DNA of 64,000 bases from Anaerolineae bacterium (GTDB taxonomy: Bacteria; Chloroflexota; Anaerolineae; UBA1429): assembly GCA_040767425.1 (NCBI GenBank), contig JAXGON010000003.1, positions 22,440 through 86,439 on the forward strand. The letters run 5' to 3'. The notes under the pieces were generated by a model. That model had not been told where the DNA came from. It made no database searches and saw nothing but the letters and a program-made list of their open reading frames with translations. The position numbers and the translations under genes are program-made. Below are positions 13,104-59,446 of this stretch, piece by piece (positions within the stretch are counted from its first letter, which is position 1; each line of letters starts with the position of its first letter).

Positions 13104-13178
13104 CCAAACCAGCCGACGTGGCCAAGCGTATCGCGTCGGGCGGGATAGCCCGATAGATCCGCAGGAGGGATCGAACCC

Positions 13179-14276: not shown

Positions 14277-14381
14277 TGCGAAGGCCGTCGGGCATGGTAA
14301 CCGGGGCGCGACCGCGGAGACCGGCGTGCCGTTGCCTGCCATCGCCTCTGCTGATCCACCACCGATGAGGATGGACTGGCC

Positions 14382-38700: not shown

Positions 38701-40686
38701 CTACTCGGCCGCCAACGCCTGATGCCCGCGGACCTCGGGCACCGTCAGGTGCACATAGCCATCGCGATACTCGAACGGCAACGGCTGGCCCGTCGGCACC
38801 AACGTGACCTGCGCGGGCGGCTGTGCCGTCTTGAAGGCCAACCCTACGTTGAACAGCGGGATCACATCCTCGATCACATCGAAGGCGAGGCCGCGCCGCT
38901 CGGGGATATAGTGCAGCAGATGCACCACCGTCCGGCCCGCCTCCTCTTGGCGCAGCATGGTCAGCTGCGCGGTACTGGGAGCATCGGTCACCGTCAACGG
39001 ATCGGGTAGCAGAAGCTTGAGCGCCGCCAGCACTAGCTTCTTGTACCAGGGTGTAGCTTGCTGGCGGTAGCCCATAAAGAGCGGATGCGCCAGATAGATG
39101 ACGTTGCCCGCGGCGTTCATGGTGATGCCCGGGTAGCCAGCGCTCTTGTCATGAGTCGGCGGCGTCTGCCGGTGCGAGCAGAAATGCTCCCAGGTACGCT
39201 CAAAGTACGGCGCGATCACATCGGCCAGGATCCGCGTGCCCTTGAGCGGCCGCACGGCCATACCACGCTCATAAATGACATGCGGCGCGGCCGGCAAGGC
39301 CCCCTCCAGCGGCCCTTTACCCACCCACAAGTAGTCGGCCTCGTACGGCGCATCGCCCTGGCACCCCAAGCCAAAGGCATCCAGCGCAAAAGAGTCGCCC
39401 GTTGGCGTCAACCCCGCCCGATAGCTGGCCAGGATGCGGCCGCCCTGATCGAGATACCCCTGCACCTTGGCCGCCAACGTCTCATCCAGCGGCACCTTGT
39501 CGGGCAGGATCACCACCCGGTAGCCGCTCCAGTCGCACTCGCCGTCGATGACATCGAACTGGTGGTGTCCCTCGGTCAGTATGCGCAGGGCGCCGGCATT
39601 GGCGCTATCCACCCGGCCATCCTCCAGGCCCACGGCCTCGACGTTGAACAGCCCGATATCCACCTGCGGCACGGCGCCGACCGCCCACGGCTCCAGCGCC
39701 TCCACCTTGGCATAGACGCTACCAATCAGGTCATAGACCTCCTCCTCCAGCCTTCCGCGCGGCGGAAGCTGGTCTCCCACGGAGCAGGCGGCGCCGTTAG
39801 CCACCATCTGCAGACACTCGTACTCTAGCGCAGCCTGATTCTTGTACGAGGCAAAGTCACCCCACGAGGTATGAAACTTGCCCGTCATGCCCAACACTGG
39901 CTTTTGCAGGGCACGCGCATAGCGCCCGGTCACCGGAAAGTGCTCATAGCCCCAACCACTAGGCAACGACTCGACCTCCAGATGGGTAAAGGTGTCCAGT
40001 GTGGGGCGGAACGACGGCGGGATGTGCCCGGTGTTATGGAACACGGTCACATCGGGCTTGAGCTGCAATACGCCGTGGCCGAACCGGCGTCGGTAGCGCT
40101 CGATCACGTCATGGGCAAAGCGCTGGCGATCCTCGGCTCGCTCCGGGCGCAAACCCTGCTTGACCATATCCCGTCGGCAATAGCGACAGGTGCACTCGCC
40201 TTGGTGGATAATATCGAAAAAGAAGCCGTCCACGTCGTCACCGAAAAGCTCTAGCACCTCCATGGTCTGCTCCCAGACATAATCCAGGTAGGGACTATTG
40301 AGGCAGAGCTTTTTCCAGCGCGCCACCACCGGGCTGGTGTTCCCCAAGGTACCCTGTGGGTTGACCTCGAGCCACTCTGGATGCTCCTCGGCCATGGCCT
40401 CGTCCAGGCCTACCGTGATATAGATCGGCGCACGGATGCCCGCCTGGTGGCAGGCGACGATCTGCTCGCCCAGCAGGTTGAACGTGAGGCTAGGATGCTT
40501 GGGAAAGCGGGTAGGCGTATAGTAGACCATGCCATGGTGACAACGCGCAAAGCAGGTAATCGAGTTCACATGGGCACGCTGCAGGGTCTCCACAAAGTGC
40601 TGCGCATCCCAATCGGCGCCCACATCGTCGATGGCCGGCGACGTGTGAAAATCCAGATGAACCTGACGCATGCGTAGGGGCTCCAT
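38701..40686 (-). CDS. Putative glycoside hydrolase, GHL6/GH42-like, paralog of the 18957-21002 gene.
   Basis: N-terminus ..RQVHLDFHTSP.. (compare ..KLFFDFHSP..), shared EHPEW motif, Cys cluster ECTCRYCRRD (compare CYCDACQ), and the same amidotransferase-like middle domain (..GGRILASYRAGL..). Confidence 0.55.
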   Translation of the reverse strand: MEPLRMRQVHLDFHTSPAIDDVGADWDAQHFVETLQRAHVNSITCFARCHHGMVYYTPTRFPKHPSLTFNLLGEQIVACHQAGIRAPIYITVGLDEAMAEEHPEWLEVNPQGTLGNTSPVVARWKKLCLNSPYLDYVWEQTMEVLELFGDDVDGFFFDIIHQGECTCRYCRRDMVKQGLRPERAEDRQRFAHDVIERYRRRFGHGVLQLKPDVTVFHNTGHIPPSFRPTLDTFTHLEVESLPSGWGYEHFPVTGRYARALQKPVLGMTGKFHTSWGDFASYKNQAALEYECLQMVANGAACSVGDQLPPRGRLEEEVYDLIGSVYAKVEALEPWAVGAVPQVDIGLFNVEAVGLEDGRVDSANAGALRILTEGHHQFDVIDGECDWSGYRVVILPDKVPLDETLAAKVQGYLDQGGRILASYRAGLTPTGDSFALDAFGLGCQGDAPYEADYLWVGKGPLEGALPAAPHVIYERGMAVRPLKGTRILADVIAPYFERTWEHFCSHRQTPPTHDKSAGYPGITMNAAGNVIYLAHPLFMGYRQQATPWYKKLVLAALKLLLPDPLTVTDAPSTAQLTMLRQEEAGRTVVHLLHYIPERRGLAFDVIEDVIPLFNVGLAFKTAQPPAQVTLVPTGQPLPFEYRDGYVHLTVPEVRGHQALAAE

Positions 40687-40746
40687 GATTCTCCTTTCAA
40701 CTAGGCGACTCGGTATAACGCCATCATAGCGGCGGAGAAAGGCAGC

Positions 40747-40787
40747 GTCAACGTCTCGTTGACCCGCCCTTTGCCCGCCGGTATACT
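40747..40787 (+). promoter_or_regulatory. Sigma-70-like promoter for the AOR gene with a palindromic operator candidate overlapping the -35.
   Basis: TTGACC (40759-40764), 17 nt spacer, TATACT (40782-40787). Palindrome GTCAACG-TCTC-CGTTGAC at 40747-40764. The 5' UTR is about 88 nt. Confidence 0.5.
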
Positions 40788-40875: not shown

Positions 40876-42768
40876 ATGAGCTACGGACACTGGGGCAAGA
40901 TGTTGCGCGTCAACCTGACCACTGGCGATATCGCCGTCGAGAGCCTCGACGAGGACTTTCTTCGGCGCTACGTCGGCGGCTGGGGGTTCATCGCGCACAC
41001 CCTGCTGCGCGAGCTGCCGGCGGGCGTCGACCCGCTGAGCCCTGAGAACCGCCTTATCTATGCCACCGGCCCCATCACCGGCCAGGCCATCGCCGGTGGC
41101 GGCCGCCACATGATCGGCGCCAAGTCGCCCCTCACCGGCGGCTTTTCGGGGTCCGAGGCCGGCGGCTATTTCGGTGCCGAGCTCAAGCGCGCCGGCTGGG
41201 ACATGATCATCTTTGAGGGCGCCTCGGAAAAGCCGGTCTACCTCTGGATCCAGGACGATCAGGTGGAGCTGCGCTCCGCCGAGCACCTGTGGGGACGCGA
41301 GATCTGGGAGGTCCAGGAAGCCATCCGCGAGAAGCTAGGCGACAAGTGGATTCGCGTCTCTCAGTGTGGCCCCGCCGGAGAACGGCTAGTGCGGGTCAGC
41401 AATATCCTGCACGACGCCACCCGCGCCGCCGGACGCACCGGCCTGGGCGCGGTCATGGGCAGCAAAAAGCTGCGCGCCGTGGCCGTACGCGGCAGCCAGT
41501 CGCCACCCGTCCACGATCCTGACGCGCTGAAAGATCTCGCCAAATGGTTCCGCGACCACTTTCGCGAGACCGGCTCCGTGGCCTATGCCACGCTGGGCAC
41601 GGTGCGCATGGTCCGCGTCCACAACGAAGCCGGCGGGCTGCCCACCCGAAACTTTTCCCAGGGCGTCTTTGAGGGCTTTGAGAATCTGACCTCTGAAGCG
41701 CAGCTCGAGGTGACCCAACGGCGCGATACCTGCTACGGCTGCCCCATCCGTTGCAAGTGGGTGGTCTCTATCGAGGACGAGACTTATCCCGCCGACCCCA
41801 AGTACGGCGGCCCCGAATATGAGACCACGGGCGCCTTTGGCTCCTGCTGTGGCATCGACGACATCCGCATCACCTGCCACGCCAACCAGCTCTGCAACGC
41901 TTACGGCCTAGACACCATCGGCGTGGGGGTGACCATCGCCTGGGCCATGGAGTCGTTCGAGCGCGGCGTGCTCACCACGGCCGATACCGACGGTCTCGAT
42001 CTGCACTTTGGCAACGGCGATGCGATCATCACCCTGATTCACAAGATCGCCCGTCGCGAGGGGTTCGGCGACCTGCTCTCCCACGGCTCGCGCTATGCCG
42101 CCCAGCAGGTCGGCCAGGGCTCGCTAGCATGGGCCGTCCAGATCAAGGGCCAAGAGGTGGCCATGCACGACCCCCGGATCAAGTACGGCCACGGGTTGGG
42201 CATCGCCGTCTCGCCCACCGGCGCCGACCACATGCACTCGGTGCATGACAGCGGCTATACTACTGACGATGGCATCCACGACCTCAAGCCGCTGGGCGTG
42301 TTGCACCCCTTGCCCAAGGACGACCTCAGCGCCGAAAAGGCCCGCATGGTGCGCCGCGCCATGATGTGGCGCGTGCTGGACAATCTCACTGGCATCTGCA
42401 TGTTCCAGATGTGGCCGCCCCAGAAAAAGGCCGAGATCATCCAGGCCGCCACGGGCTGGAACACCTCGGTGCTAGAGCTGTGGCAGGCAGCCGAGCGCGC
42501 CTATGACATGGCCCGCGCCTTTAACGCCCGCGAGGGCTTTGGCCCCGATGACGACGACCTGCCGCCGCGCATGTACGAGCACTTTGCCGAGGGGCCAGCC
42601 GCCGGCCAGGCGCCCACCCGCGAGCAGTTTGCCGCCGCCAAGCAGGCGTTTTACGCCTACATGGGGTGGGATCCGAAGACGGCCGCGCCCACGCGCGAGA
42701 GGCTGGAGGAGCTGGACGTGCCCTGGGTGGCAGAGCTGCTGGAGGGGGCGACGAGACGCGATGCTTAG
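40876..42768 (+). CDS. aor: Tungsten-containing aldehyde:ferredoxin oxidoreductase (AOR family).
   Basis: MSYGHWGKMLRVNLTTGDI..; tungstopterin-binding and [4Fe-4S] region (..CYGCPIRCKW..); ..GADHMHS..; AOR domains 2/3. ATG 40876 after GGAGGGGG. Confidence 0.9.
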   Translation: MSYGHWGKMLRVNLTTGDIAVESLDEDFLRRYVGGWGFIAHTLLRELPAGVDPLSPENRLIYATGPITGQAIAGGGRHMIGAKSPLTGGFSGSEAGGYFGAELKRAGWDMIIFEGASEKPVYLWIQDDQVELRSAEHLWGREIWEVQEAIREKLGDKWIRVSQCGPAGERLVRVSNILHDATRAAGRTGLGAVMGSKKLRAVAVRGSQSPPVHDPDALKDLAKWFRDHFRETGSVAYATLGTVRMVRVHNEAGGLPTRNFSQGVFEGFENLTSEAQLEVTQRRDTCYGCPIRCKWVVSIEDETYPADPKYGGPEYETTGAFGSCCGIDDIRITCHANQLCNAYGLDTIGVGVTIAWAMESFERGVLTTADTDGLDLHFGNGDAIITLIHKIARREGFGDLLSHGSRYAAQQVGQGSLAWAVQIKGQEVAMHDPRIKYGHGLGIAVSPTGADHMHSVHDSGYTTDDGIHDLKPLGVLHPLPKDDLSAEKARMVRRAMMWRVLDNLTGICMFQMWPPQKKAEIIQAATGWNTSVLELWQAAERAYDMARAFNAREGFGPDDDDLPPRMYEHFAEGPAAGQAPTREQFAAAKQAFYAYMGWDPKTAAPTRERLEELDVPWVAELLEGATRRDA

Positions 42769-43231
42769 GTGTCGCGCAGCAATACGCGCGCCATAGAGCC
42801 AGTGCTCGTTTGCGACTGGATGCAGGATTATCTCAAATGACCTCAAATTGAACGATAGCTGGTGTAAACTGCAAGCATGGTTGGGAGGGCCAAGAAAAGG
42901 GTCCGCTGCTGGGGTCATACCCGGCACCCGGCCGTGTTTTGCTGTGAATCGATCATGGCGCGCGGCAGACTCGCCAACCAGCCACACCGCCAAATACACC
43001 TCGGTATCTGGCAGCGGCTGACAAGAGGCATGTCCCATCGGACAACCTCGAGACAGCAAGCTATCGCTCAAGCCGTCTACACGGCTGCGCTCGGTATCGC
43101 TTACTGAGGGGAGCGGTTGCCGCGCGGACACGGCTGAACAGGATCGGCTCCGATTGGTAGTGACTGCCATTGACGCTTGCGTCCTGGAAGAAGGATCTAC
43201 CGTCGGCCGTACCGATCCTGCTCAATTCCCC

Positions 43232-43260
43232 TTGACCTCTCCCCCCTCCGCAGCTATAGT
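43232..43260 (+). promoter_or_regulatory. Sigma-70-like promoter upstream of the 964-aa gene.
   Basis: TTGACC (43232-43237), 17 nt spacer, TATAGT (43255-43260), about 85 nt before the start at 43347. Confidence 0.5.
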
Positions 43261-43346
43261 GTCATCAGAATAGCGCTCCCCGGCAGCCTCGTCCGACCGT
43301 TAGGCGCCGCCGCCTGCTTGCGACGCCCAGCTCGAAGGACGCAGAC

Positions 43347-46241
43347 GTGAAACGCACATCTCGACCGCCCAAGGCTGTCGTAGATGGGCCTCGGCTCTCC
43401 CACCGCGGCACCCTGGTCTGCGCCGCGCTGCTCCTCTTGGTCGGAAGCGCCTGCATCACCACCGAGTATGGCTTGACGATCACCGCGCCGGACCAGGATG
43501 GCGAATCCGAACTCATTGCCACCATCTCAGAGAGGCTTCACGCCGAGTACGTTGACGCCGCCCTGCAGGCCAACGCCGAGTATCGGGCCGATCTCGCGGC
43601 CGTCGGCGGTACGGTGAGCGAGGACCCTTTCCCCACCACCATCGAGGGCCTCTCCGATCTCATGAGCAGCATCCCCACCGCCCAAGAGATGCGCGACGAC
43701 GGCATGGACGTTGACGAGTCCTACGACGGTTTCGTCGCCACCCGGACCATCCCCTTGTCCGAGGCTCTCGCGAACCTGGAATCCTCCGAAGAGAAGATGA
43801 TCGTCATCGACGAGAGCGCGCCCCCCGCCATACGTTACATCTTTGACCAAGTGGTCCCCATAGGCGATGCCGAGAACGACATGGTCGCCCAGTTGGAGGA
43901 GATAGATCGTTACCGGCGCGAGGGCTTGCCGCCGAAACCCAAACTGGTGATCCGCGAGGGAGAGATCGTCGCCGAAGGCGAGGTCGACTATCTCGCGCTG
44001 TTCGGCTCCCTCGGCGAAAAGAGCGAACTGGAGGCGTGGTACTGGCTTCGCATCCTGGTGGAGACTGGCATCCCCACGTTCAGCTTTTCCGTCTCCATGC
44101 CCGGCGAGGTCGTTCTTTATACAATAGATGGCGTGCCGGGCGGAAACCTGGTAGACAACCGCGTCACCTTTGTGTTTGACGAAGCTTTCATGCGGCGCCT
44201 CGGCACCGGCGACCACCGCCTACATGTGGAGACGGTGTACATCCCCGGGCAGACGCCCGCATCCCGCGACGACCGCGATGGCGACGGCATCCCTGATGAC
44301 GACGACGCCTGCCCCAACCAGTACGGCCCGCCCCCCGATGGCTGCCCCACCGACGCCTTGGCACTAGTCTGCGTGCCCGCTGAGCCCGCAGCGTATGCGC
44401 AGGTCACCTGCACGGCCCGTGTGCCCGAAGCGCACCGCACCGACACGCTCACCTTCGACTGGTACCTGGACGGCGCCCATCAGGGGACGAGCACACAGCC
44501 CACCTGGGTTTGGGGATCGGCCGAGCCGGGGAAACACGACGTGGGCGCTGACGCCATTGGCGATGGCTGGAGCTCCAGCGCATCTATTCCGCTCGACGTC
44601 TCCGAGGACCGCGATCTGGTAGCGACCCTGGGATACGCCCCCGACCCTCCCGTGGCAGACAAGTCGCTGATCCTTAGCGTACAGGTGGACGGGAGCCGCC
44701 CCGATGAGACGCTCACCTACCGCTGGTTCTTGGACGACCAACTGGCCTCAGAGGCCGAAACCATGGCATGGGTGGCTATCACCGGCACCCACACCGTCCA
44801 GGTGGAGGTACGCGGCGAGGGCGACCGCCTCGCTGTCGACCGCCGCAGCGTGGCCGTCCCGCCGCTCCAGCCAGCCTTCTACGAGGCCACCCCGGGAGCG
44901 CAGGCCGCGTTTGACATCTCTTACCTACAATGCACCGAGAGCATCACCACCGGCGAAAGCGTCGAATGCACCGTGGGCATTACCCGCGATGACAGCAAGG
45001 TGGGAGCGCTTGGCGTAGTTTGGTTCGTGGACGGCGCGTTGGCGCAACAGGAAGAGTCGGTGGGTTTGAGGGCCGCTTTCTCTCTAGAGAACCCGTCTCC
45101 CGGCCAGCACACGATCCAAGTGCGCGTCATTGACCCCGAATCGGGCGACGCCGCGGCCAGATCCGCCGTTGTGCGCGTCGACGAGGGGGCAGGGGGCCGC
45201 ATCCCTACCGCGGCAGCTGCCGGCGCAGCCGCCGGAACGGCCGGCACCATAGGCGCGTGGCTGTGGTTGGAGTGGTGGCGCGCCCGCATGGCGCAGCAGC
45301 GTGTCGAAGCAGCCGCCCGCGCAGCCGAGGCACGCAAGGCCGCGGAGGAGGCCGCCGATGAGGCCCTGCGACAGGACCGGCAACGCTGGTACGACCAAGT
45401 GGAGGAGCTCAACCGCGTTGAGAGGCAGCAGCGTGCTTACCGCGAGGCCCTTGGCGAGTACTATGACGCCGCGCTGGATCATCTCGATGCAGTCATCAAG
45501 CTAGGGCACCTGGAACGCGATCACGCCCAGCTCTCCAAACGACTGGCGGAGCTCAAGGTCCAGTTCGACGTCGCGCGTTGCACCGCCGTAACCGACGGTG
45601 TACTTGAAATCGCCGACATAATGGTGGATACGCTGCTGTGGAACGCCGGCGGCGGCCCCGAGTGGCTCTCGACGGTGCCCGGCGGCTATGGCAAGGATTG
45701 GCTAAAAGCCCTCCTCAAGGCCGCCGCCCGCCAGAAAGTTCGCGAGGCCTACGGGGTTCCGGGGCACGAACCCGATTTTCTGCGCAAACAGTTTCTCGAT
45801 TCCGCTGGCATCCCGACAGACTATTTCGTCGATTGGGACGTCGCTACACGCGATAAGGGGCTACCGCGCATCGTCTTCGACCTGGGGGTGCCGCGTGGGG
45901 TCCCCAAAACCTTGCTGATCCAGCAGCTTGAGAAACGCCTCCCGACCCGGGACCTGGGCAAGAACCTGGGATACGGCTACAGTGTGTTCGAGACCGGCGC
46001 AACCGCCGCCGTTGACACGGCGGACAAGATGGAAGAGTGTCGCAAGCTGCGGCGGCAGATGAGCACCACGCTCGATCAGGTGCTGCGCCGCGAGCGAGCC
46101 ATCCCGGATGCCCAGGACGACGCCGCCCAGGCCACCCGCGTGCTACAACAGCGCACGCAACAGGTAGCCGCCGCGCAACCATCCGCCGCGGATCGGGCCG
46201 TCAATACCCAAGCGCGCTGGGAAGCGATGCAGCAACGCTAG
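43347..46241 (+). CDS. Large hypothetical lipoprotein-like single-pass membrane protein: extracellular region with an Asp-rich Ca-binding-like motif and three tandem Ig-like repeats, a TM helix, and a cytoplasmic coiled-coil/alpha domain.
   Basis: N-terminus MKRTSRPP..LLLLVGSAC (lipobox-like LVGSAC). DDRDGDGIPDDDDACPNQ (thrombospondin-type-3-like Asp motif). Three approximately 110-aa repeats (..TFDWYLDGAHQG..HDV.., ..TYRWFLDDQLASE..HTVQVEV.., ..VVWFVDGALAQQ..HTIQVRV..). TM AAAGAAAGTAGTIGAWLWLEWW at about residues 610-635. About 330-aa Glu/Arg/Gln-rich helical C-terminal domain. No recognisable catalytic motif. Confidence 0.6.
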   Translation: MKRTSRPPKAVVDGPRLSHRGTLVCAALLLLVGSACITTEYGLTITAPDQDGESELIATISERLHAEYVDAALQANAEYRADLAAVGGTVSEDPFPTTIEGLSDLMSSIPTAQEMRDDGMDVDESYDGFVATRTIPLSEALANLESSEEKMIVIDESAPPAIRYIFDQVVPIGDAENDMVAQLEEIDRYRREGLPPKPKLVIREGEIVAEGEVDYLALFGSLGEKSELEAWYWLRILVETGIPTFSFSVSMPGEVVLYTIDGVPGGNLVDNRVTFVFDEAFMRRLGTGDHRLHVETVYIPGQTPASRDDRDGDGIPDDDDACPNQYGPPPDGCPTDALALVCVPAEPAAYAQVTCTARVPEAHRTDTLTFDWYLDGAHQGTSTQPTWVWGSAEPGKHDVGADAIGDGWSSSASIPLDVSEDRDLVATLGYAPDPPVADKSLILSVQVDGSRPDETLTYRWFLDDQLASEAETMAWVAITGTHTVQVEVRGEGDRLAVDRRSVAVPPLQPAFYEATPGAQAAFDISYLQCTESITTGESVECTVGITRDDSKVGALGVVWFVDGALAQQEESVGLRAAFSLENPSPGQHTIQVRVIDPESGDAAARSAVVRVDEGAGGRIPTAAAAGAAAGTAGTIGAWLWLEWWRARMAQQRVEAAARAAEARKAAEEAADEALRQDRQRWYDQVEELNRVERQQRAYREALGEYYDAALDHLDAVIKLGHLERDHAQLSKRLAELKVQFDVARCTAVTDGVLEIADIMVDTLLWNAGGGPEWLSTVPGGYGKDWLKALLKAAARQKVREAYGVPGHEPDFLRKQFLDSAGIPTDYFVDWDVATRDKGLPRIVFDLGVPRGVPKTLLIQQLEKRLPTRDLGKNLGYGYSVFETGATAAVDTADKMEECRKLRRQMSTTLDQVLRRERAIPDAQDDAAQATRVLQQRTQQVAAAQPSAADRAVNTQARWEAMQQR

Positions 46242-46255
46242 GAGAGGATAGGACT

Positions 46256-47149
46256 ATGCCCACGCTGCGCATGTACACACCGGCCGCTCTCGCCGAGATG
46301 GCGCGCGAGGTCCGCCTGCATCGCGCCGACAAGATCATGACGGACGTCGATCTGGCCCTGTTGCTGGCGCGTTGCGTCCTGCGCGATGACGCTGGCGCCT
46401 ACTTTTACCTCGATCCGCGCGATGAGAGCTGGTATCGCTGGGATGACGCCACATGGCAGCCATCCACCGCGCCCGAAGGACCTCTGGCGGGAGAGGATGG
46501 GTTGCCTGTGTCAATACGTCGCCCAGAGATTCCACCGGAGGAGGTGGTAACACCCGGGGAGCGCGTCTCGGCGGCCCAGGCGTTGGCAAACATCCGCCAG
46601 ACGGTGTGGGAAGCTTTTCGTGACGGCCGCTTGGATAGCGACGCCGCCGCCATCCTCATGGCGCGACAAGTGCTGGTGGAGCGCTCGGGGATCGCGTGGA
46701 CCGTCGGGATCGCGACGGGGCACTGGTACCGCTTTTGGCCGGAGGGCTGGAGCGAAGCGGCGCCGCCCCCCATGGATGACGAGTTGTGTGGCCGCGGAGA
46801 GCTGGGATCGCTGTTGGAGAACCCCAGCGGTGAGAACGATCCGCCCGACGCGCTGGCGCGCTTTCTCGTCGCCGGCGTGGGAGTCCTGCCGGAGGCTATC
46901 ACCCCTCCCTGGACCCCTCCCGACGCCATCCCCGCCGCCGCCATGAAGCTATATCGCGTATGCCCGAGCTGCAAAGCCACCATCGCCGCCGAGAGCCGCT
47001 TCTGCCCCGTCTGTCGCGCCGTGCGGCCGGAGCCGTTGCCCCCGAAAGGCGACAGCGCTCCTGAGAAACAGCCTGAGGCCCGATGCTCCCGATGTGGCGC
47101 CCCCCTGCGCGCTGGCGACGCCTTTGCCTCCGGTGCGGTGCGCCCGTAA
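46256..47149 (+). CDS. Hypothetical cytoplasmic protein with a C-terminal multi-zinc-ribbon (CxxC) array, apparently truncated by a frameshift (the array continues to 47244).
   Basis: ATG 46256 lies 9 nt after GGAGAGG and 15 nt after the upstream stop. C-terminus CPSC-x10-CPVC, CSRCGAP; stop TAA 47147-47149. A further C[L]RCGAP..CIRCGAQ-x7-CPAC segment is encoded in the +2 frame from 47125 to TGA 47242-47244. Confidence 0.55.
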   Translation: MPTLRMYTPAALAEMAREVRLHRADKIMTDVDLALLLARCVLRDDAGAYFYLDPRDESWYRWDDATWQPSTAPEGPLAGEDGLPVSIRRPEIPPEEVVTPGERVSAAQALANIRQTVWEAFRDGRLDSDAAAILMARQVLVERSGIAWTVGIATGHWYRFWPEGWSEAAPPPMDDELCGRGELGSLLENPSGENDPPDALARFLVAGVGVLPEAITPPWTPPDAIPAAAMKLYRVCPSCKATIAAESRFCPVCRAVRPEPLPPKGDSAPEKQPEARCSRCGAPLRAGDAFASGAVRP

Positions 47150-47331
47150 GCGAGTCCAATCACTGCATCAGGTGCGGCGCACAGATCCCAAAGGGAGCCC
47201 GGTTCTGCCCAGCGTGCGGTGCCAGGCAGGATGAGAAGCCTTGACGACCCTCGTGGCGCAGAACTGCGCCCTCACCCAGTCCGTGGCTGAGGGCACCTGC
47301 ATCAAGCGCTGCCGGCCGTCACGGGCGACGC

Positions 47332-47510
47332 GGCAGGCGGCCGAGCGCGCCTACGATATGGCCTGGGCCTTTAACGCCCGCGGGGCTTTGGCCCCGATGA
47401 CGACGACCTGCCGCCGCGCATGTTCGAGCATGCCGACGGGTCCAGCCGCCGGCCAGGCGCCCACGCGCGAAAGGCTGGAGAGCGGACGTGCCCTGGGTGG
47501 CAGCTGGGGG
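47332..47510 (+). pseudogene. Degraded partial duplicate of the 3' end of the AOR gene (gene remnant).
   Basis: Nucleotide-level similarity (about 90 %) to 42482-42752 (..GCCGAGCGCGCCTA[CT]GA[TC]ATGGCC..TTTAACGCCCGC..GGCCCCGATGACGACGACCTGCCGCCGCGCATG..). It translates to ..QAAERAYDMAWAFNAR.. and then loses frame. An internal deletion of about 75 nt lies between the short direct repeats CCCAC(C/G)CGCGAG. Confidence 0.6.
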
Positions 47511-47984
47511 GGCGTAGAGATCGAGGGGCCGGCTGTGCCCGACGCCCGTGTGTGCCACGGTAGAGTACAGCAGACCGCATCTTGCCAACAGCGAACCCCC
47601 ATTCGCCCTACGACCCCAGCCAGCCGCCGCGGCGCCATAGGCCGCCAGCGTCTCGTCATTCGAGCGCTGAGCAAGCGATCGGGCCATCATCGGTCCTCGA
47701 GATATCGTCGCCTACCCCACGCATGCCCCACGTTAGTCGTTTGGGCCTCCGCCCGCCAGAGATCGGCGTGGTGTCCACCCACATCTGCATGGGCTGGCCT
47801 CTGCTCGACCGAAAGCATGGCCACCGTAGGCCTCGTCCACCCAGGGCCAACGATGGGCCAGGCGAACCGAACAGCTTGGAAAGTGGATGAATCCTCGTTG
47901 GCCGGCCGGCATAGCGCGTCCATATTCGAAAACGAATCGGTGGCAGTGCACCCTCCCGATGCGAGATACACCGGAAAGACCGCC

Positions 47985-48308
47985 TCATACTGGACCAGTG
48001 GGATCATCGCCGAAAGCCCAGCTCAGGATGGCATGGTTCAAGCTCGCCTCGATGGCATCGGTCGGGTTCGACAGATGCGGGTCTATACGCGCACCCCACC
48101 AGCCAGTCCGCCGATTCTGCATGGTGAGCGCATGGTCGCGGGCGTCAGTGGCGGCGGCAGAGATCAAGACTTTGCCAAGCTCGGCCTCTTCCAGCCCAGC
48201 CAGCATGCTTCGAGAGACGTCACACGCCATCGCATGCACGTGAATGTCGATCAGCACGTTTGCACCTCCAAGGCTAGCAACCTTGCATCCTGAGATTCTA
48301 GCGCGCAC
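47985..48308 (-). pseudogene. N-terminal fragment of a metal-dependent (amidohydrolase-type) hydrolase.
   Basis: ..GGANVLIDIHVHAMACD.. (the hHxH metal-binding start of the amidohydrolase/TIM-barrel hydrolase fold). The frame breaks after about 107 codons. Downstream minus-strand ORFs (47656-48007) look like shifted continuations. Confidence 0.4.
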
Positions 48309-49615
48309 GTCGGCAGCTCATGTTCTTATCTGAAAGTCGGGGCACACTGTTCTCTCAAATGAAAACGTCACCGGGGAGCAGCATGAGACCACAGGGTTGG
48401 ACCTGAAGCAACGTCTGAACGAATCCAACAAAGCGCTATGCACTGAAGACTGAAGAGGGCTTTACGCTTCATCATACACCCGCTCCTCACACCGAATCGG
48501 ATACGACGTCTGAACGGCAAGTTCCCGACCTCAGCCGACGCAGGAAAGAGCGAGGTGCACGTTCGCCACGATCCTGAAGTAGACGAGGTGCGCATCGTCT
48601 ACCGGGCTTACGACGGCGCCCAAGCGCACCCGCCGCGGACTATGCCGGAAGCATCCAGGCACAGCCACGGCATCTCGTCGTAACCCGCCCTGCAGTGAAG
48701 CAGGTCGGATCGCGGGCCATCAGCGTCTCGGATATCGTGCGGCGCGGGCATCCTGCAACGGGTCCGACAGGCAGCCACGGCGTCAGCGCCGTCCCATAGG
48801 CCAGCGCCGGTTAGGAGGGTCCCGCCAAGGGCGTCCTGGGTGTCCACCCCGGGGCATCGAGGTGGACTGATCTGCACCCGCCGCCGAAAGCGGGCGGGCA
48901 CCGCCAGACCTTGCATCTCGTGGACGTCGCCAGCGGCTGGATGAATGGGCCAGGTGCGACGCAGCTATCTTGTGATGCAGGATGAGTTTTAGCGGTGTGC
49001 CCGGCGTTTGCCTTTCTCCGAAGAATCCGGACAATGGCGGCAATCCGCCAGCCCATGAATACATCAAAGCGCTCCCATCTGGTCCAGTTCTGGTTGGGGA
49101 TCATCTTCACCGGCGAAGCCCAGCTCAGGCGTCCAGCCGCCCCGATGGCAAAAGAACGACAACCGCTTCGTCGAGCACGCAACGGGTTCGATCCAGAGGT
49201 GAACGGGATCGCGACTCCGGCCGAGCAGGCCCGAGCCAGCCGAGATCCGCCGATCATATCTTCAGCCGGCATGACACACAAGACCTATGACCGTGAGACT
49301 CAAGTGACGTCGCGGGGCGTTTCCAGCGTGCGGCGGGCCGGAGCGCAGAGGATCACGCAGCGCCTCTACGACCAACCGATCCGCTAACATTACGCCAGCA
49401 GCACAGGAGGACGTCCGCTCTTGTGAAGCTGCCGGGTCACAGCAGATGGAGCGATGCACGTGTGTACTACTACGATCATCCGTTACACCTCACGGCGAAA
49501 GGAGGAGGCCTCTCTCCGGTGACGTTATCAAACCGAGGCCTTCTAGCGTGCACGTCTGGCGGACACGCAACGTCAACGTCCCTCGCGACGCTTAGCAGAG
49601 GCTGTGGGGGCGTCT

Positions 49616-49822
49616 ATGATACCGCTGCAACGGGACCTCTACGGCCAGGCCGAGGCTTGGTCCACTCAATCGGAGCTAATGGTGCGCCACATCTATGCCT
49701 ACATGCGCGCCATGGAGACGTGGCGCTATGAGCGGCTGCCCATCGACGAGGGACGCCCTATGATGCCCGATCCCACTATGGCCACGCCGCTGGAGCCTGC
49801 CTATCCCGGGGATGACGACTAG
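49616..49822 (+). CDS. Small hypothetical acidic protein (68 aa) in an otherwise gene-poor region.
   Basis: ATG 49616 after GGGGGCG. The product MIPLQRDLYGQAEAWSTQSELMVRHIYAYMRAMETWRYERLPIDEGRPMMPDPTMATPLEPAYPGDDD has non-repetitive, protein-like composition, unlike the surrounding ORFs. Confidence 0.3.
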   Translation: MIPLQRDLYGQAEAWSTQSELMVRHIYAYMRAMETWRYERLPIDEGRPMMPDPTMATPLEPAYPGDDD

Positions 49823-49883
49823 CCGAATCAGCAGACGAGAGGACCCGACGACGGGGGCGAGCGTGGCCCTTCGCCTCTGTTCC

Positions 49884-49912
49884 TTGACGCCCACCCCCAC
49901 CGCGGCTATGGT
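49884..49912 (+). promoter_or_regulatory. Sigma-70-like promoter for the GH38 locus.
   Basis: TTGACG (49884-49889), 17 nt spacer, TATGGT (49907-49912); RBS GGGGGAA before ATG 49954. Confidence 0.5.
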
Positions 49913-49953
49913 GTCCCAAACGTCAATCGCCACATTCCTGGGGGAACGCCATC

Positions 49954-52674
49954 ATGGCCAAAGCGCCTCGCCGTTGTCACTATGTCGTGAGCACGCACTG
50001 GGACCGCGAATGGTACCAGACCTTTCAGGGCTTTCGCTTTCGCCTCGTCAAGCTGATGGACCGCGTCCTCGAGGGCTGGCGCGACGGCCGGCTGAAGGGC
50101 CCCTTCCAGACCGACGGCCAGGCAGTGCTATTGGAGGACTATCTCGAGATCCGCCCAGAGCGCCGCGATGAACTGATGGAGCGCGCTCAAGAGGGCAAGC
50201 TGGTCATCGGCCCCTGGTACGCCATGCCGGATGAATTCCTGGTCTCGGGCGAATCCTTGGTGCGGAACCTGCGCCTGGGCCGAGAGGTAGCCCGCTCCCT
50301 CGGCGGCGAGCCCAGTTGCGCCGGCTTTGCCTGCGACCTCTTTGGGCACAACAGCCAGTTGCCCCAGATCTATGCCGGATTCGACATCGTGGCCGCCCTG
50401 ATCTGGCGCGGCCTGAACACCTGGGATCACCGCAACCTGCTCTGGGAGGGCGCTGATGGCACCGTCCTGCCCACCTACCGCTTTGGCCACGTGGGCTATT
50501 GCACCTATGCCATCGACGTGCGCGGCTGCCGTGACAAGGCCGGCTGCGTCGATCTCAAGGCGCTCAATGGCAGGCTGGATAGCTTTTTGCAGTGGACGGC
50601 AGAGTGCTCCGACGTGGATCCGCTGCTGCTCTTTGACGGGTGCGACCACATGGAGTGGGACCCCGTCACCTACCAAGCAATCGTCGACCGCATGGCGCCG
50701 GACGCACCAGACGACGGCTTCCAGATCGTCCATACTAGCCTCGACGAGTTCTGCCGCGAGATGGCCGCCCAGGCCGATCGCATCCAGACCCGCGTGGTCG
50801 GCGAGCTGCGCGAGCCCGCCCGCTGGACCGAGGAACGCGACAACCAGTGGCTGATTCCGGGCGTGCTCTCCAGCCGGGTGTGGATCAAACAGGAGAACGC
50901 GGCCTGCGAGACCCTGCTGACTCGCTGGACCGAGCCCATGGGCGTGCTGGCCCACCTGGCGTTGGGCCGTGACTACCCCAAGGGCTATCTCGACGTCGCC
51001 TGGCGCTGGCTGCTGCGCAACCACCCCCACGACTCCATCTGCGGTTGCAGCATCGACCAGGTCCACGAGGATATGAAGTTCCGCTTTAGCCAGTGTCGCG
51101 GGATCTGCCAAGAGGTCACCCGCGACGTTGAGCGCCGCATCGCCGCCAACGTGGGCGAGCCGGTGGTCCCCGAGACCCTGCGCGTCACCCTCTTTAACGG
51201 CGCCCAGGTGCCGGTGGACGAATCCGTCGAGGTGATCCTGGAGATCCCCTCCGATTGGCCTACGTTCAACGAGTTCTTTGGCTTTGAGCCCAAGCCAGCC
51301 TTTCGCATCTATGACGCGGAGGGCAACGAGGTGCCCTATCAGCGGCTCCACCAGACCATGAAGCAGCCGGCTACCCGACTCCTCGACACGGGGTCCATCC
51401 AGGGCTATCAGACCCATCACGTGCGCGTGAGCTTGCCGGCACGCATCCCGGCATTTGGCTATACGACGTATACGGTGCTCCCTGGCAAGCATGGCGAGCG
51501 CACCCGGCATCCTGCCGTGCCCGGCCTAGCCACCAGCGAGCGCTCTATGGAGAATGAGCACCTGGCCGTAACGATCGAGAGTAACGGCACCCTGACCCTC
51601 ACCGACAAGCGCACCGGCCAGCGCTATGAGCGGCTGCTCACCTTTAAGGACACGGCCGATATCGGCGACGGGTGGTACCACGGCGTGGCTGTCAACGACG
51701 AGACCTATGTCTCCACAGCCTCCCCCGCCGCCGTGGCCCTGGTGCACGACGGCCCCATGCTGACCACGTTCCGCGTGCGCACCAGCATGTCGGTGCCGGC
51801 GGCCTTCCAGTTCGATGGCATGATCCGCTCCGATCAGCGCACCGACCTAGTCATCGACAGCCTGATCTCGCTCCGCCCGGGGGCGGCGCACCTAGAGGTG
51901 GAGACCACCGTCCACAACAACGCCCTCGATCACCGGCTCCGCGTCCTGCTGCCCAGCGGCGCCCAGACCGACACCTACCTGGCCGACACGCCCTATGACG
52001 TGGTCGAGCGCCCCATCGCCCTCCGGGCCGATAACCACCTATATCGCGAGCTAGAGGTCGAGACCAAGCCGCAACGCACCTGGTCGGCCGTGGCCGACGC
52101 CGTCCGCGGCCTGGCCGTCATCAGCGCGGGCCTGCTGGAGACAGCCGTGCGTGACCTGCCCGAGCGCCCCTTGGCCCTGACCCTGTTCCGCGCCACCCGC
52201 ACCACCGTGGGCACCGCCGGTGAGCCCAATGGCCAGCTCCAGGGGACGCTCCAGTTTCGCTACTGGATCGTCCCGCTGGATGGCCAACCGCGCAGCGCCG
52301 AGGCCCGCATGGCCCTCTACGCCCTGGCCAACCGGCTGGCCTGTGGCGTGCACGCCGCCCAGCTGCAAGCCCTGGATGGCGAGCAGCTCCGCGAGCGGGG
52401 TGGGCTGCCCGCCAGCGGCGCGTTGATGGCCGTCAAGGGGCCGGTGGTCGTCACCGCCACCGAGATGCGTGGCGATGCCCTCGAGATCCGGGCGTTCAAC
52501 CCGGGCAGCGAGCCGGCGCAGGCCACCTATCGGCTCACAAGCGATGCCCCGTTCACGTCCGCCCAGCCGGTCAACCTGGAGAGCACGCCCCAGGGCGAGC
52601 CGCAGCCCATCGTAGATGGCGCGGTGACCGCCGAGTTTGGTCCCAAGCAGATCGTGACGTTGCGGTTGAGCTAG
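49954..52674 (+). CDS. Glycoside hydrolase family 38 (alpha-mannosidase).
   Basis: N-terminal HYVVSTHWDREW (GH38 H-x3-H-x-H-W-D-R-E-W metal/catalytic signature); about 900 aa with GH38 central and C-terminal beta-sandwich domains. Confidence 0.85.
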   Translation: MAKAPRRCHYVVSTHWDREWYQTFQGFRFRLVKLMDRVLEGWRDGRLKGPFQTDGQAVLLEDYLEIRPERRDELMERAQEGKLVIGPWYAMPDEFLVSGESLVRNLRLGREVARSLGGEPSCAGFACDLFGHNSQLPQIYAGFDIVAALIWRGLNTWDHRNLLWEGADGTVLPTYRFGHVGYCTYAIDVRGCRDKAGCVDLKALNGRLDSFLQWTAECSDVDPLLLFDGCDHMEWDPVTYQAIVDRMAPDAPDDGFQIVHTSLDEFCREMAAQADRIQTRVVGELREPARWTEERDNQWLIPGVLSSRVWIKQENAACETLLTRWTEPMGVLAHLALGRDYPKGYLDVAWRWLLRNHPHDSICGCSIDQVHEDMKFRFSQCRGICQEVTRDVERRIAANVGEPVVPETLRVTLFNGAQVPVDESVEVILEIPSDWPTFNEFFGFEPKPAFRIYDAEGNEVPYQRLHQTMKQPATRLLDTGSIQGYQTHHVRVSLPARIPAFGYTTYTVLPGKHGERTRHPAVPGLATSERSMENEHLAVTIESNGTLTLTDKRTGQRYERLLTFKDTADIGDGWYHGVAVNDETYVSTASPAAVALVHDGPMLTTFRVRTSMSVPAAFQFDGMIRSDQRTDLVIDSLISLRPGAAHLEVETTVHNNALDHRLRVLLPSGAQTDTYLADTPYDVVERPIALRADNHLYRELEVETKPQRTWSAVADAVRGLAVISAGLLETAVRDLPERPLALTLFRATRTTVGTAGEPNGQLQGTLQFRYWIVPLDGQPRSAEARMALYALANRLACGVHAAQLQALDGEQLRERGGLPASGALMAVKGPVVVTATEMRGDALEIRAFNPGSEPAQATYRLTSDAPFTSAQPVNLESTPQGEPQPIVDGAVTAEFGPKQIVTLRLS

Positions 52675-52713
52675 CCGTCGTTCCTGATAGCCCTTGCCAA
52701 CAAAGGAGTATCC

Positions 52714-54204
52714 ATGCCACGCCCCAACATCTTGCTGTTCTTTACCGATCAGCAGCGCGCCGACACGATCCATGCCGGCGGCAACCCGGTCATCCGCACG
52801 CCTAACCTGGATCGCTTGGCGCGGGAGGGCGTCCGCTTTAGCAGCGCTTATACGCCCAGCCCGGTCTGCGTGTCGGCCCGCTGCTCCATGATCCACGGCC
52901 AGTACGCTCACAACACCGGCTGCGCATTCAACGGCGACGCCATGCCCACCGACCGCCCCAGCTTTATGCAGGTGCTCACTGACGCCGGCTATCGAACCCA
53001 TGGCATCGGCAAGATGCACTTTACGCCCGATTCCCAAGCCCTGCGCGGCTGGCAGACCCGCGAGCACCAGGAAGAGATCCGTCGCAGCGTGGACGAGGAC
53101 GACTATCTCAAATTCCTGCGGAGCAAAGGCTACAGCCACGTCTACGATCCCATGGGACAGCGCGGCGAGATGTACTATATGCCGCAGCTCGCCCAGATGC
53201 CCGCCGAGTACCACGCGACCCATTGGGTGGGGGATCGCTCCATCGCCTTTATCCGCGAGCAGGAGCGGAGCGACCAGCCTTGGCTGCTCATGTCCAGCTA
53301 CATTCATCCCCACCCGCCCTTTTCGCCGCCTACACCGTGGAACAAGCTCTACCGGGCGCCGCTGATGCCCCTGCCCAAGATGCCGCAGCAGTACGAAGCC
53401 TTTTGGACCTATATGAACCGCGTGCAGAACCGTTACAAGTATCGCGATAACGGGTTTGACTATAACATGCTGCGCTGCTTGAAGGCGTTCTACTATGCCT
53501 GCATCTCGTTCATCGATTACCAGGTCGGCCGCATCCTGCAGGCGCTCGAGGAGACTGGTCAGCTTGACAACACCCTGATCCTCTACACCTCGGATCACGG
53601 CGAGTTCTTGGGCGACTATGGCTGCTTTGGCAAGCGCAGCATGCTCAACGCCGCCTGCAACGTCCCCATGCTAGCCCGCTTCCCACAACGCTTTGCCCAG
53701 GGCGCCGTCTGCAACACCCCCACCAGCTTGGTGGACATCATGCCAACCATGCTGGCGGCCGCCGACGTGCAGCGGGATGATCTCGCGCTCGACGGCGTCG
53801 ACCTGGCCGAGATCGCCCAAGAGGGCTCTGACACGCTGCTCGGTCAGCGTACCGTCTATAGCCAGTACCAGCATCGTGACGTCGGCGTCTACATGGCGTT
53901 GACCCGCCGCTGGAAGTATTTCTACTCGGCGCCCGACCGCCGCGAGTGGCTGATCGACCGCGAACAGGATCCCAACGAGCTCCGCAGTCAGGCCGGGCTG
54001 GTGTTCCGCCACAGCGCCGTATCCGAGATGCGCGACAACCTGTGGTCATTCTACCGCTCCCAGGGCTTTGAGGAACCGCTGGACGGCAACGCCTGGCGTA
54101 CCTACCCGCAGCCGAGCGTGCCGGAAGATCCCGACGGCGGCCTACTGATCCAGGATCCACCTTGGGCGGCACCGTATCAGCGTATCCCGGGCTACACCGA
54201 ATAG
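52714..54204 (+). CDS. Sulfatase (alkaline-phosphatase superfamily, formylglycine-type) with a variant signature.
   Basis: MPRPNILLFFTDQQRAD.. (metal-binding DQQ), ..SPVCVSARCSMIHGQY.. (C-x-S-x-R instead of the canonical C-x-P/A-x-R), ..HGIGKMHF... RBS AAAGGAG. Confidence 0.8.
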   Translation: MPRPNILLFFTDQQRADTIHAGGNPVIRTPNLDRLAREGVRFSSAYTPSPVCVSARCSMIHGQYAHNTGCAFNGDAMPTDRPSFMQVLTDAGYRTHGIGKMHFTPDSQALRGWQTREHQEEIRRSVDEDDYLKFLRSKGYSHVYDPMGQRGEMYYMPQLAQMPAEYHATHWVGDRSIAFIREQERSDQPWLLMSSYIHPHPPFSPPTPWNKLYRAPLMPLPKMPQQYEAFWTYMNRVQNRYKYRDNGFDYNMLRCLKAFYYACISFIDYQVGRILQALEETGQLDNTLILYTSDHGEFLGDYGCFGKRSMLNAACNVPMLARFPQRFAQGAVCNTPTSLVDIMPTMLAAADVQRDDLALDGVDLAEIAQEGSDTLLGQRTVYSQYQHRDVGVYMALTRRWKYFYSAPDRREWLIDREQDPNELRSQAGLVFRHSAVSEMRDNLWSFYRSQGFEEPLDGNAWRTYPQPSVPEDPDGGLLIQDPPWAAPYQRIPGYTE

Positions 54205-54238
54205 ATCCGTCGTCATACCGCGTACAAGGAGCTAGGCT

Positions 54239-55741: not shown

Positions 55742-55754
55742 ATCGCACGACAAA

Positions 55755-55787
55755 ACGCCCCCGGCCTGGAAAAGAGGTCGGGGGCGT
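55755..55787. terminator. Perfect 9-bp stem hairpin between convergent genes.
   Basis: ACGCCCCCG (55755-55763) / CGGGGGCGT (55779-55787), loop 15 nt, followed by TCTCATCTC. Confidence 0.5.
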
Positions 55788-55808
55788 TCTCATCTCGCAG
55801 AGATCGGC

Positions 55809-56951: not shown

Positions 56952-56953
56952 CG

Positions 56954-57919: not shown

Positions 57920-58109
57920 CCTAGTTGCCTCCTTTGCCGCGCGACGGTGTCGCGCCCTCACTCGACACCGCTCTATGGTACCAGTCCCCAGGCCCGCTGC
58001 CAAGCGCCGCCATAGGCCAAGCCACGATCGGCCCTGTCGAGCTTGCGCAACGCCCAGCCCGTCGGTAGACTAGCCTCGATCAGAGGTCATCCCAAGACAG
58101 GAGCTGTTG

Positions 58110-59411: not shown

Positions 59412-59446
59412 TTGGCAAGACGAGCCACTCAAAGGGAGAGCATCCT

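Follow-up and report, generated by a model that had tools for sequence, protein, structure and literature searches.

Introduction

Integrase-mediated islands and prophages enter the 3' ends of tRNA, transfer-messenger RNA (tmRNA) and protein-coding genes and restore the gene end, and non-replicating plasmids can be integrated by a single crossover of the Campbell type. Gene turnover between conserved core genes is also found at chromosomal hot spots or 'islets'. A further process is homology-facilitated illegitimate recombination (HFIR; PMC3240628; de Vries and Wackernagel 2002 and Prudhomme et al. 2002, as cited in PMC5361080), which has been proposed to underlie C-terminal displacement in Rhs, contact-dependent inhibition (CDI) and type VI secretion system (T6SS) effector-immunity loci (Kirchberger et al. 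2017, PMC5361080, which cites Jackson et al. 2009 for rhs). The locus described here lies on a 64,000-nt stretch of the genome of an uncultured Anaerolineae bacterium (Chloroflexota; assembly GCA_040767425.1, contig JAXGON010000003.1, positions 22,440 to 86,439 of the forward strand; the whole stretch is called the window below). The 3' end of a gene for aldehyde:ferredoxin oxidoreductase (AOR) is present twice in the window, on either side of two cargo genes, g1 and g2. An initial annotation, made from the letters alone, took the two copies for the attL and attR junctions of a decayed integrative element. The analysis reported below indicates that recombination at a variable slot most likely left the second copy behind as a scar. 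The specific reading we favour, with a rough probability of 45%, is that it represents the displaced homology arm of an old, integrase-free, homology-driven additive integration of cargo at a recombination hot spot.

Two Copies of the AOR 3' End

The gene and the two copies of its end are placed as follows.

40876-42768, + strand: intact AOR gene, 630 aa from MSYGHWGK (Pfam AFOR_N, E 4e-76; AFOR_C, E 1e-117)
42482-42756, + strand: repeat copy 1, the 3' end of the resident AOR, 275 nt of conserved coding end (BLASTN, repeat search, nhmmer)
47332-47520, + strand: repeat copy 2, a decayed, non-coding AOR 3' end, originally 275 nt and now 189 nt (BLASTN, repeat search, nhmmer)

The resident gene is a full-length member of its family, covered throughout by AFOR_N and AFOR_C and with 7569 homologues at E 1e-100 or better. 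Its stop codon (TAG) occupies 42766-42768, and the conserved coding sequence stops near 42745, the last seven codons (GATRRDA*) being lineage-specific. The AOR region was compared with the whole window by BLASTN, with a repeat finder, MAFFT and nhmmer as cross-checks. Two collinear blocks in direct orientation were returned, 42482-42623 against 47332-47470 (130/143, 91%, E 6e-50) and 42680-42756 against 47450-47520 (66/79, 84%, E 4e-14). They overlap within copy 2 because 76 nt have been lost from it between short direct repeats, GCGCCCAC(C/G)CGCGAG, which stand at 42609-42623 and 42685-42699 in the resident gene. The next-best match to the AOR region elsewhere in the window had an E of only ~2e-4. 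The repeat search, MAFFT and nhmmer all recovered the same second copy, and a DNA profile made only from AOR alleles of other genomes detected it independently (nhmmer, 47330-47470, E 1.5e-26, plus 47457-47503). Chance similarity is ruled out by these values, and the recurrence of the AOR end at 47332 in the same orientation, as described in the initial annotation, is confirmed. No third copy, AOR paralogue or further fragment was detected in the window by BLASTN or nhmmer, and the profile search found no AOR sequence in the 374 nt between two amidohydrolase pseudogenes that lie further to the right.

The two copies differ by ~5% in substitutions (~95% alike), and their longest exact common run is 41 nt. 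Copy 2 has eight indels in all, the 76-nt deletion and seven smaller ones (-1, -3, +1, -1, -1, -5 and -1), and therefore cannot encode protein, in agreement with the earlier description of a mismatched, non-coding copy with an internal deletion of about 75 nt. It is without function today. Nucleotide alignment of the repeat ends places the right end at 42756, 12 nt short of the AOR stop codon, with nothing alignable beyond. The left end is at 42482, or at 42443 (47314 in copy 2) if a 21-nt deletion is allowed, as supported by a 12/13-nt match and an nhmmer envelope that begins at 47311. In sequence, copy 2 is nearest to the resident AOR (91%), compared with 89.5% to the allele of the related locus L172 and 77% to that of L001. 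Five of the seven substitutions in the first block fall at third codon positions, a small sample. At three sites (GCG, GAT and GAA) the copy matches the L172-type allele and not the resident, for which parallel GC-to-AT changes may be responsible; it agrees with the resident, window-type allele at the codons CCA, GGC and GCA and at the start of the tail (GGGGCG).

A Hypervariable Slot Between AOR and Amidohydrolase

Long contigs of relatives came from the 90% cluster that surrounds the nearest AOR homologue. AOR and amidohydrolase converge on an interval that is hypervariable, a slot or hot spot which in close relatives holds four types of cargo between the same flanks.

Type 1 (window, L081, L085, L083 and L001): g1 and g2
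Type 2 (L167-L169; in L167 at 11959-16255), on the opposite strand: TnsA-like protein, ResIII helicase and N6/N4 methyltransferase
Type 3 (L170-L177; for example L172 6259-7212, - strand): a single 317-aa gene with a faint SQHop_cyclase_N match
Type 4 (L166): DUF3800-VI RNA and DUF3800 gene

The type 2 cargo resembles a restriction-modification or defence set. The domain matched by the type 3 gene is a terpene cyclase/prenyltransferase repeat, and this gene shares its strand with the amidohydrolase and lies just 3' of it.

The window, L166/L088 and L167-L172 lineages are each ~89% identical over the GHL6 and AOR genes, and the flanks of L167 and L172 share 96.8% identity around different cargo. 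Loci L167-L169 have the same upstream genes and AOR as the window and, past the cargo, genes for amidohydrolase, ADH, sulfatase, URO-D and GH38. The boundaries of the slot are sharp. On the left, the nucleotide homology of every other AOR allele to that of the window ends at 42744-42746, and each lineage has its own AOR C-terminal tail, the short-tailed alleles of L167 and L172 encoding 626 aa. On the right, homology resumes no more than ~5 nt from the amidohydrolase stop codon. AOR repeats were not found around the other cargos in L167, L170 or L172.

The AOR gene of L167 is of L172 type at almost all informative sites and then shows ten consecutive L166-type sites near its 3' end. This pattern shows a homologous crossover inside the AOR 3' end, beside the swapped cargo, and is direct evidence that cargo turnover here makes use of such crossovers. 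More generally, homology in the ends of the flanking genes is the route by which slot content is exchanged. A scan of metagenome contigs carrying AOR returned only L086-L088 as close matches, none of them informative downstream. Loci L085, with g1-g2 in the slot, and L177, with the 317-aa gene, both come from JGI metagenome 3300009607, and therefore donors and recipients of cargo coexist.

The Cargo Genes g1 and g2

The segment enclosed by the two AOR copies contains the following features.

43232-43260, + strand: strong g1 promoter, TTGACC, 17 nt, TATAGT (10/12 consensus positions)
43347-46241, + strand: g1, first gene of the clade-specific cargo, 964 aa, with a lipoprotein-like signal and weak Pfam PKD and Big_3_5 matches
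46256-47244, + strand: g2, second cargo gene, 329 aa, with a triple zinc-ribbon C-terminus (Pfam DZR and Zn_ribbon)
47245-47331: spacer x, 87 nt, from the g2 stop to the AOR fragment; in L081 and L085, absent in L083

Both genes are very rare, with two homologues of g1 and five of g2 among 5.8 billion proteins, and look-ups of the exact g1, g2 and AOR products of the window returned no record. The g1 protein has PKD/Ig-like domains, one predicted membrane helix and a coiled-coil C-terminal part, and its promoter is conserved across the window, L081, L083 and L001. In the window, g2 carries a 1-nt deletion in a T run (47123-47125) and the resulting frameshift cuts off the last zinc ribbons. The run is TTTT in L081, and an intact g2 of 329 aa is present in L081, L085 and L084, so the truncation is confined to the window genome; it could reflect early pseudogenisation or a homopolymer assembly error.

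The ratio of nonsynonymous to synonymous divergence (dN/dS) between the window and L081 is 0.155 for g1 and 0.28 for g2, with dS of 0.19-0.34 in the two genes. They are under purifying selection, as these ratios (0.15-0.28) indicate. The composition of the cargo is that of its host: the G+C content (GC) of the bracketed segment is 0.653 against 0.652 for the window, third-position GC (GC3) of g1 is 0.784 (mean 0.789) and its codon-usage distance 0.123 (mean 0.133), the tetranucleotide distance of the segment ranks 7/60, and the GC skew is also host-like. A foreign composition of g1-g2 is rejected on all five measures, and the comparison of GC skew and codon usage proposed in the initial annotation does not set the segment apart from the rest of the window.

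Across g1-g2 the window and L081 are mostly 95-100% identical, with two patches at 60-78%, one at 45700-46000 (g1 aa 785-885) and one at 46350-46700 (g2 aa 31-148). In the g2 patch, L081 is as far from the window as L083 and L084 are. The hypervariable patches suggest either imported alleles or diversifying selection in regions that possibly interact.

Outside L081 and L085, no relative of spacer x was detected, and two candidate origins of it were rejected. As a diverged upstream part of AOR it offers only the 12/13-nt collinear match (Smith-Waterman p ~0.06), and its similarity to a truncated amidohydrolase 3' end is not significant (p ~0.25).

Relatives Carrying the Same Cargo

The nearest named relatives are metagenome-assembled genomes of Anaerolineae/Anaerolineales. 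The Logan contig L081, from a sister lineage, is collinear with the window from 42703 to 47361 at 91.8% identity and takes in the spacer, g1, g2 and x as well as 30 nt from the start of the AOR fragment. Two differences from the resident copy of the window within these 30 nt are shared with the window fragment. Locus L085 has the same g2 and spacer x. Because L081 carries the beginning of copy 2, this copy is old and inherited, and predates the split of the window, L081 and L085 lineages. According to the initial annotation, a relative with an identical arrangement, fragment included, would argue for an old local duplication rather than an insertion; L081, ~92% identical, has that arrangement as far as its contig reaches. 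Both ends of the contig (window 42703 and 47361) lie within AOR repeat copies, as would result from an assembly break at a repeat. In that case, the fragment of L081 matches its own resident (GAT CTG, where the window resident has GAC ATG), which hints at gene conversion between the copies.

In L001 and L083, whose AOR is 85% identical at the protein level, g1 follows straight after AOR with the same promoter. The order in L083 is AOR, g1, g2, 28 nt and an intact Amidohydro_2 gene of 272 aa on the opposite strand, continuing with sulfatase, arabinofuranosidase, BNR and dehydrogenase genes as in the window at 52708-60000. L083 has no second AOR copy. A g1-g2 pair that is 39% identical is found in L082, with no AOR upstream.

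The Spacer after AOR

About 465 nt separate the AOR stop codon from the g1 promoter. The initial annotation described an unusually AT-rich patch at the start of this spacer; GC is indeed lower there (0.57-0.60, window mean 0.65), but the difference is mild and resembles that of other intergenic stretches. The patch contains one recognisable element.

42878-42934, + strand: orphan DUF3800-VI RNA-like motif (Rfam RF02915, full model, 32.4 bits, E 1.3e-4)

DUF3800-associated RNA motifs were described by Weinberg et al. 2017 (PMC5737381), and RF02915 is DUF3800-VI. The gathering score of this family is 35 bits, and the motif of the window was found by a relaxed search. Orthologous motifs in L166 (5535-5591, 34.0 bits) and L081 (180-236, 29.6 bits) are, like that of the window, full-length and just under the threshold. 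In L166, whose AOR is 94% identical to that of the window at the protein level, a DUF3800 gene (GC 0.56) lies ~35 nt 3' of the motif. The homology of the two spacers breaks off at 42940, and no DUF3800 open reading frame (ORF) remnants were detectable in the window or L081. The RNA motif and its promoter-like sequence account for the lower-GC patch, which is the orphaned leader of a lost DUF3800 module, the DUF3800 gene having been deleted in the window and L081. The motif is like described members of its family in fitting the full model, and its L166 orthologue stands just 5' of a DUF3800 gene, as the family is defined. It is unlike them in that the window and L081 lack the gene and the score falls slightly under the gathering threshold. 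No tRNA and no Rfam family at gathering threshold was found. The extra spacer at 42941-43180 has no similarity to any fetched locus or to the remaining window.

The Decayed Interval to the Right

Downstream of the AOR fragment the window holds a gene graveyard, which ends at an intact alpha-mannosidase gene.

47521-47607: spacer y, 87 nt, from the AOR fragment to the amidohydrolase stop codon, without detectable homologue
47608-48257, - strand: amidohydrolase (Amidohydro_2) pseudogene 1 (nhmmer E 2.6e-90 with a profile of intact orthologues)
48632-49480, - strand: tandem amidohydrolase pseudogene 2, far more decayed (nhmmer E 2e-20, profile positions 35-796/810)
49550-49620: remnant of the amidohydrolase-ADH intergenic region, contiguous with pseudogene 2 on the right
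49627-49823, + strand: sulfatase 3' remnant, last 64 codons and stop (tblastn E 1.6e-19, 55% identity)
49954-52674, + strand: GH38 alpha-mannosidase, the first intact gene to the right (Pfam; syntenic in L002, L167 and L173)

The AOR fragment forms the left edge of this zone, 87 nt from the g2 stop and 87 nt from the amidohydrolase stop. Pseudogene 1 has stop codons, frameshifts and deletions amounting to ~160 nt (tblastn ~36% identity with in-frame stops), and intact orthologues of 269-272 aa occupy its position in L083, L084, L167 and L172-L177. Pseudogene 2 is also matched by blastn to L172 and L170; the relatives have one intact copy. The sulfatase remnant is 85.8% identical over 197 nt to L167 and L172 (blastn). 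The window lacks ADH, URO-D and most of the sulfatase, all of which L167 and L172-L175 have. Pfam searches of the ORFs in 47241-49933 gave no match, and the pseudogenes were found only by means of orthologues from related contigs; 48258-48631 and 49481-49549 match nothing that was recovered, and the former has no similarity to other parts of the window either.

Gene order also differs on the other side of AOR. The GHL6 gene lies upstream of AOR on the opposite strand in the window, follows the sulfatase on the same strand in L084 (5899-6162, matching window 40423-40668), and is at yet another place in L002; some lineages have therefore undergone an inversion or a move of the AOR-to-sulfatase block. 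The divergent GHL6-AOR promoter region contains a 59-nt imperfect palindrome (40726-40784, 75% self-complementary, centred on CAACGTCTCGTTG), which may be a regulator binding site.

Origin of the Second AOR Copy

In the additive integration that we favour, an ancestor of the window and L081/L085 lineages would have taken up DNA of a related cell, comprising the last ~275-315 nt of AOR, the DUF3800-leader remnant, g1, g2 and 87 nt past g2. The recipient slot would have been nearly empty (AOR, ~90 nt, amidohydrolase), spacer y being former recipient intergenic DNA. Recombination may have proceeded through the AOR homology alone, either by a single Campbell-type crossover of a circularised fragment or by HFIR, with the cargo added rather than exchanged and the AOR arm ending up on both sides. 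The upstream copy would then complete the working AOR gene, and the downstream copy, having lost its 5' part and being under no selection, would decay by GC-to-AT changes, small indels and the 76-nt slippage deletion. As would be expected of such an arm, the duplicated segment comes from a conserved resident gene, its upstream copy is functional and its downstream copy is 5'-truncated. The main discriminator between integration and local duplication is the point at which homology ends. This lies 11 nt past the allele boundary at 42744-42746, which is the edge of the slot, and L081 (92% identical) aligns straight through 42756, unlike copy 2. A stop at 42756 is expected if the copies derive from AOR alleles with different slot contents. 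Read in the resident frame, copy 2 continues GGG GCG TAG and would give an AOR ending in ...LLEGA*, of 625 residues (630 minus 5, by our count), that is, a short-tailed AOR of typical length, close to the 626 aa of L167 and L172. The site switch in the AOR of L167 independently shows crossovers in such an arm accompanying cargo turnover, and the 60-78% patches against L081 suggest that recombination between lineages has also taken place inside the cargo.

Several observations weigh against this reading, and some of them speak for its main rival, a purely local duplication in one genome followed by neutral decay, with g1-g2 inherited vertically and unrelated to the repeat. The unit 42482-47331 might have been duplicated in tandem, almost all of the second unit then being deleted, or break repair or template switching might have placed a copy of a ~300-nt patch of the nearby AOR 3' end between g2 and the amidohydrolase. 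The g1-g2 pair occupies the same place behind the same promoter, with no repeat, in the outgroup loci L083 and L001, and so the window lineage could simply have inherited the cargo and acquired the repeat later, by a local event. The adjacent tandem duplication of amidohydrolase shows that the interval is prone to duplication and that local duplication clearly occurs here. The composition is not anomalous, the fragment shares the window-type CCA, GGC, GCA and GGGGCG with the resident, and an empty slot (AOR, a y-like spacer and amidohydrolase, with no cargo) was not found in ~15 related loci. Nor has spacer y, the supposed recipient DNA, a homologue in the fetched loci or the remaining window; the junctions show no evident microhomology, the left repeat end is fuzzy (42443 or 42482), and the divergence of AOR from L166 continues without a recombination break at 42482. 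Where the copies differ, the derived state is nearly always that of the fragment, with a bias from GC to AT, as a local duplication would have it, but this would fit any model in which the copy was at first near-identical to the resident, and the substitution patterns do not decide between the two explanations. Under a local duplication, however, the right end would fall within ~10 nt of the allele divergence point and the gene end only by coincidence, the chance of which we put at ~3-10% (a rough estimate, not computed). The tandem route further needs two events, the second a non-homologous deletion that takes out the slot content and nothing else; L083 lacks spacers x and y, with only 28 nt between g2 and amidohydrolase; and the fragment has the L172-type GCG, GAT and GAA, subject to the parallel changes noted above. 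A local duplication is judged possible, though somewhat unlikely.

The remaining explanations are considerably weaker. The fragment might be the left end of a captured piece of ~1.3 kb (47332 to ~48630), copied from a genome in which AOR adjoined amidohydrolase, that entered between g2 and the native amidohydrolase by illegitimate recombination, a single event that would explain both extra copies. The order AOR fragment, y, pseudogene 1, 374 nt, pseudogene 2 agrees with this, as does the contiguity of pseudogene 2 alone with ancestral upstream intergenic DNA. By a rough, informal comparison, excess substitutions over the identity expected of an intact gene amount to ~12-14% in pseudogene 1 and ~5-6% in the fragment, and the two therefore do not look equally old, unless gene conversion from the resident AOR refreshed the fragment. 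Two illegitimate joins and an unobserved donor with an empty slot would be needed as well, and capture appears very improbable. It is also improbable, if slightly less so, that g1-g2 and their promoter form a non-autonomous module moving among Anaerolineae lineages by means of a captured AOR 3' end, with no recombinase of its own. Such a module would be excised or circularised with the AOR end and would re-enter genomes by host RecA-type recombination on that piece, and the hypervariable, apparently co-varying patches in g1 and g2 would result from alleles being exchanged repeatedly in a pair of interacting proteins, one at the surface and one cytoplasmic. If true, the window would preserve a natural example of 'homology-arm hitch-hiking'.

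The reading put forward in the initial annotation, of an integrase-driven element that targets the AOR 3' end, supplies a new end and has since lost its integrase, is likewise very doubtful. The layout does fit, since 4.6 kb lie between direct repeats of which the upstream one makes the gene complete and the downstream one is a remnant; the repeats at both ends share the exact 41-nt run, as an att core would, slot content varies among relatives, and the loss of the DUF3800 ORF within the segment makes loss of an integrase possible in principle. The absence of an integrase, already noted from the letters, is borne out: recombinase, transposase, phage and defence families were not found by Pfam in the substantial ORFs of 33005-55741 or by PADLOC and PHROGs in g1 and g2, and no integrase was called on L081, L083 or L085. 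There is thus no recombinase or mobility gene in the segment or in the related cargo with the repeat, and the interval is fully explained by g1, g2, the promoter and ~0.5 kb of spacer. No tRNA is present, the segment is host-like in composition with both genes under purifying selection, and the arrangement is inherited across lineages (dS 0.19-0.34). The same cargo occurs without repeats in L083, other cargos lack them (L167, L170 and L172), and none of the recovered relatives shows the predicted empty site, in which GH38 would follow the AOR stop. An attL/attR origin is therefore not supported, given the missing recombinase, the host-like cargo and the repeat-free cargo of L083. The logic of a supplied 3' end and a displaced remnant is probably right in spirit, but a decayed integrative element is not indicated as the agent. 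Nothing found supports an att site, and a self-inserting mobile element is unlikely.

Comparison with Described Systems

The case is a new instance of known processes and, as a dead 190-nt gene fragment, modest by itself. As a dated scar it shows gene-content turnover in uncultured Chloroflexota at a fixed slot between two convergent genes, through recombination in the gene ends on either side and with no dedicated mobile-element machinery involved. It also advises caution, as a duplicated gene end beside novel genes is not always an integrase footprint. More informative than the fragment is the comparison set of four alternative cargos, a clean swap whose crossover can be seen, and an additive event with a displaced arm; from it the ancestral gene order can be reconstructed and several losses in this genome recognised.

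With integrase-mediated islands the locus shares direct repeats of the target 3' end that bracket the insert, an intact gene upstream and a remnant downstream. It differs from them in having no recombinase, phage or conjugation genes and no compositional signature, and in that the same cargo in L083 and the other slot cargos lack repeats. The resemblance to chromosomal hot spots and islets is closer, with conserved flanks, several unrelated small cargos that include a restriction-modification-like set, and exchange via flanking homology. Here, in contrast, the setting is uncultured Anaerolineae, the boundaries fall exactly at two convergent gene ends, and one exchange has left a duplicated arm.

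HFIR and Campbell-type integration resemble the proposed event in that one homologous region suffices to add foreign DNA, and a single crossover of a Campbell circle flanks the insert with two direct copies of the homology arm, the very layout found in the window. These processes are known mainly from laboratory transformation and conjugation, whereas the event considered here is deduced from an old, decayed scar with no clear microhomology.

In Rhs, CDI and T6SS loci, too, incoming DNA is anchored in the conserved part of a gene and brings a new 3' end with downstream cargo, the old 3' end is left further downstream as an orphan, and no integrase takes part. Clean replacement by double crossover is commoner at the same locus, and L167 resembles such a clean swap. 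The displaced ends of those systems are different toxin tips, often kept with immunity genes, while the window has near-identical ends of a metabolic enzyme, the displaced one a useless, decaying piece, and a single scar rather than an array. Among known systems, C-terminal displacement in Rhs and T6SS loci is the closest analogue of the proposed additive integration.

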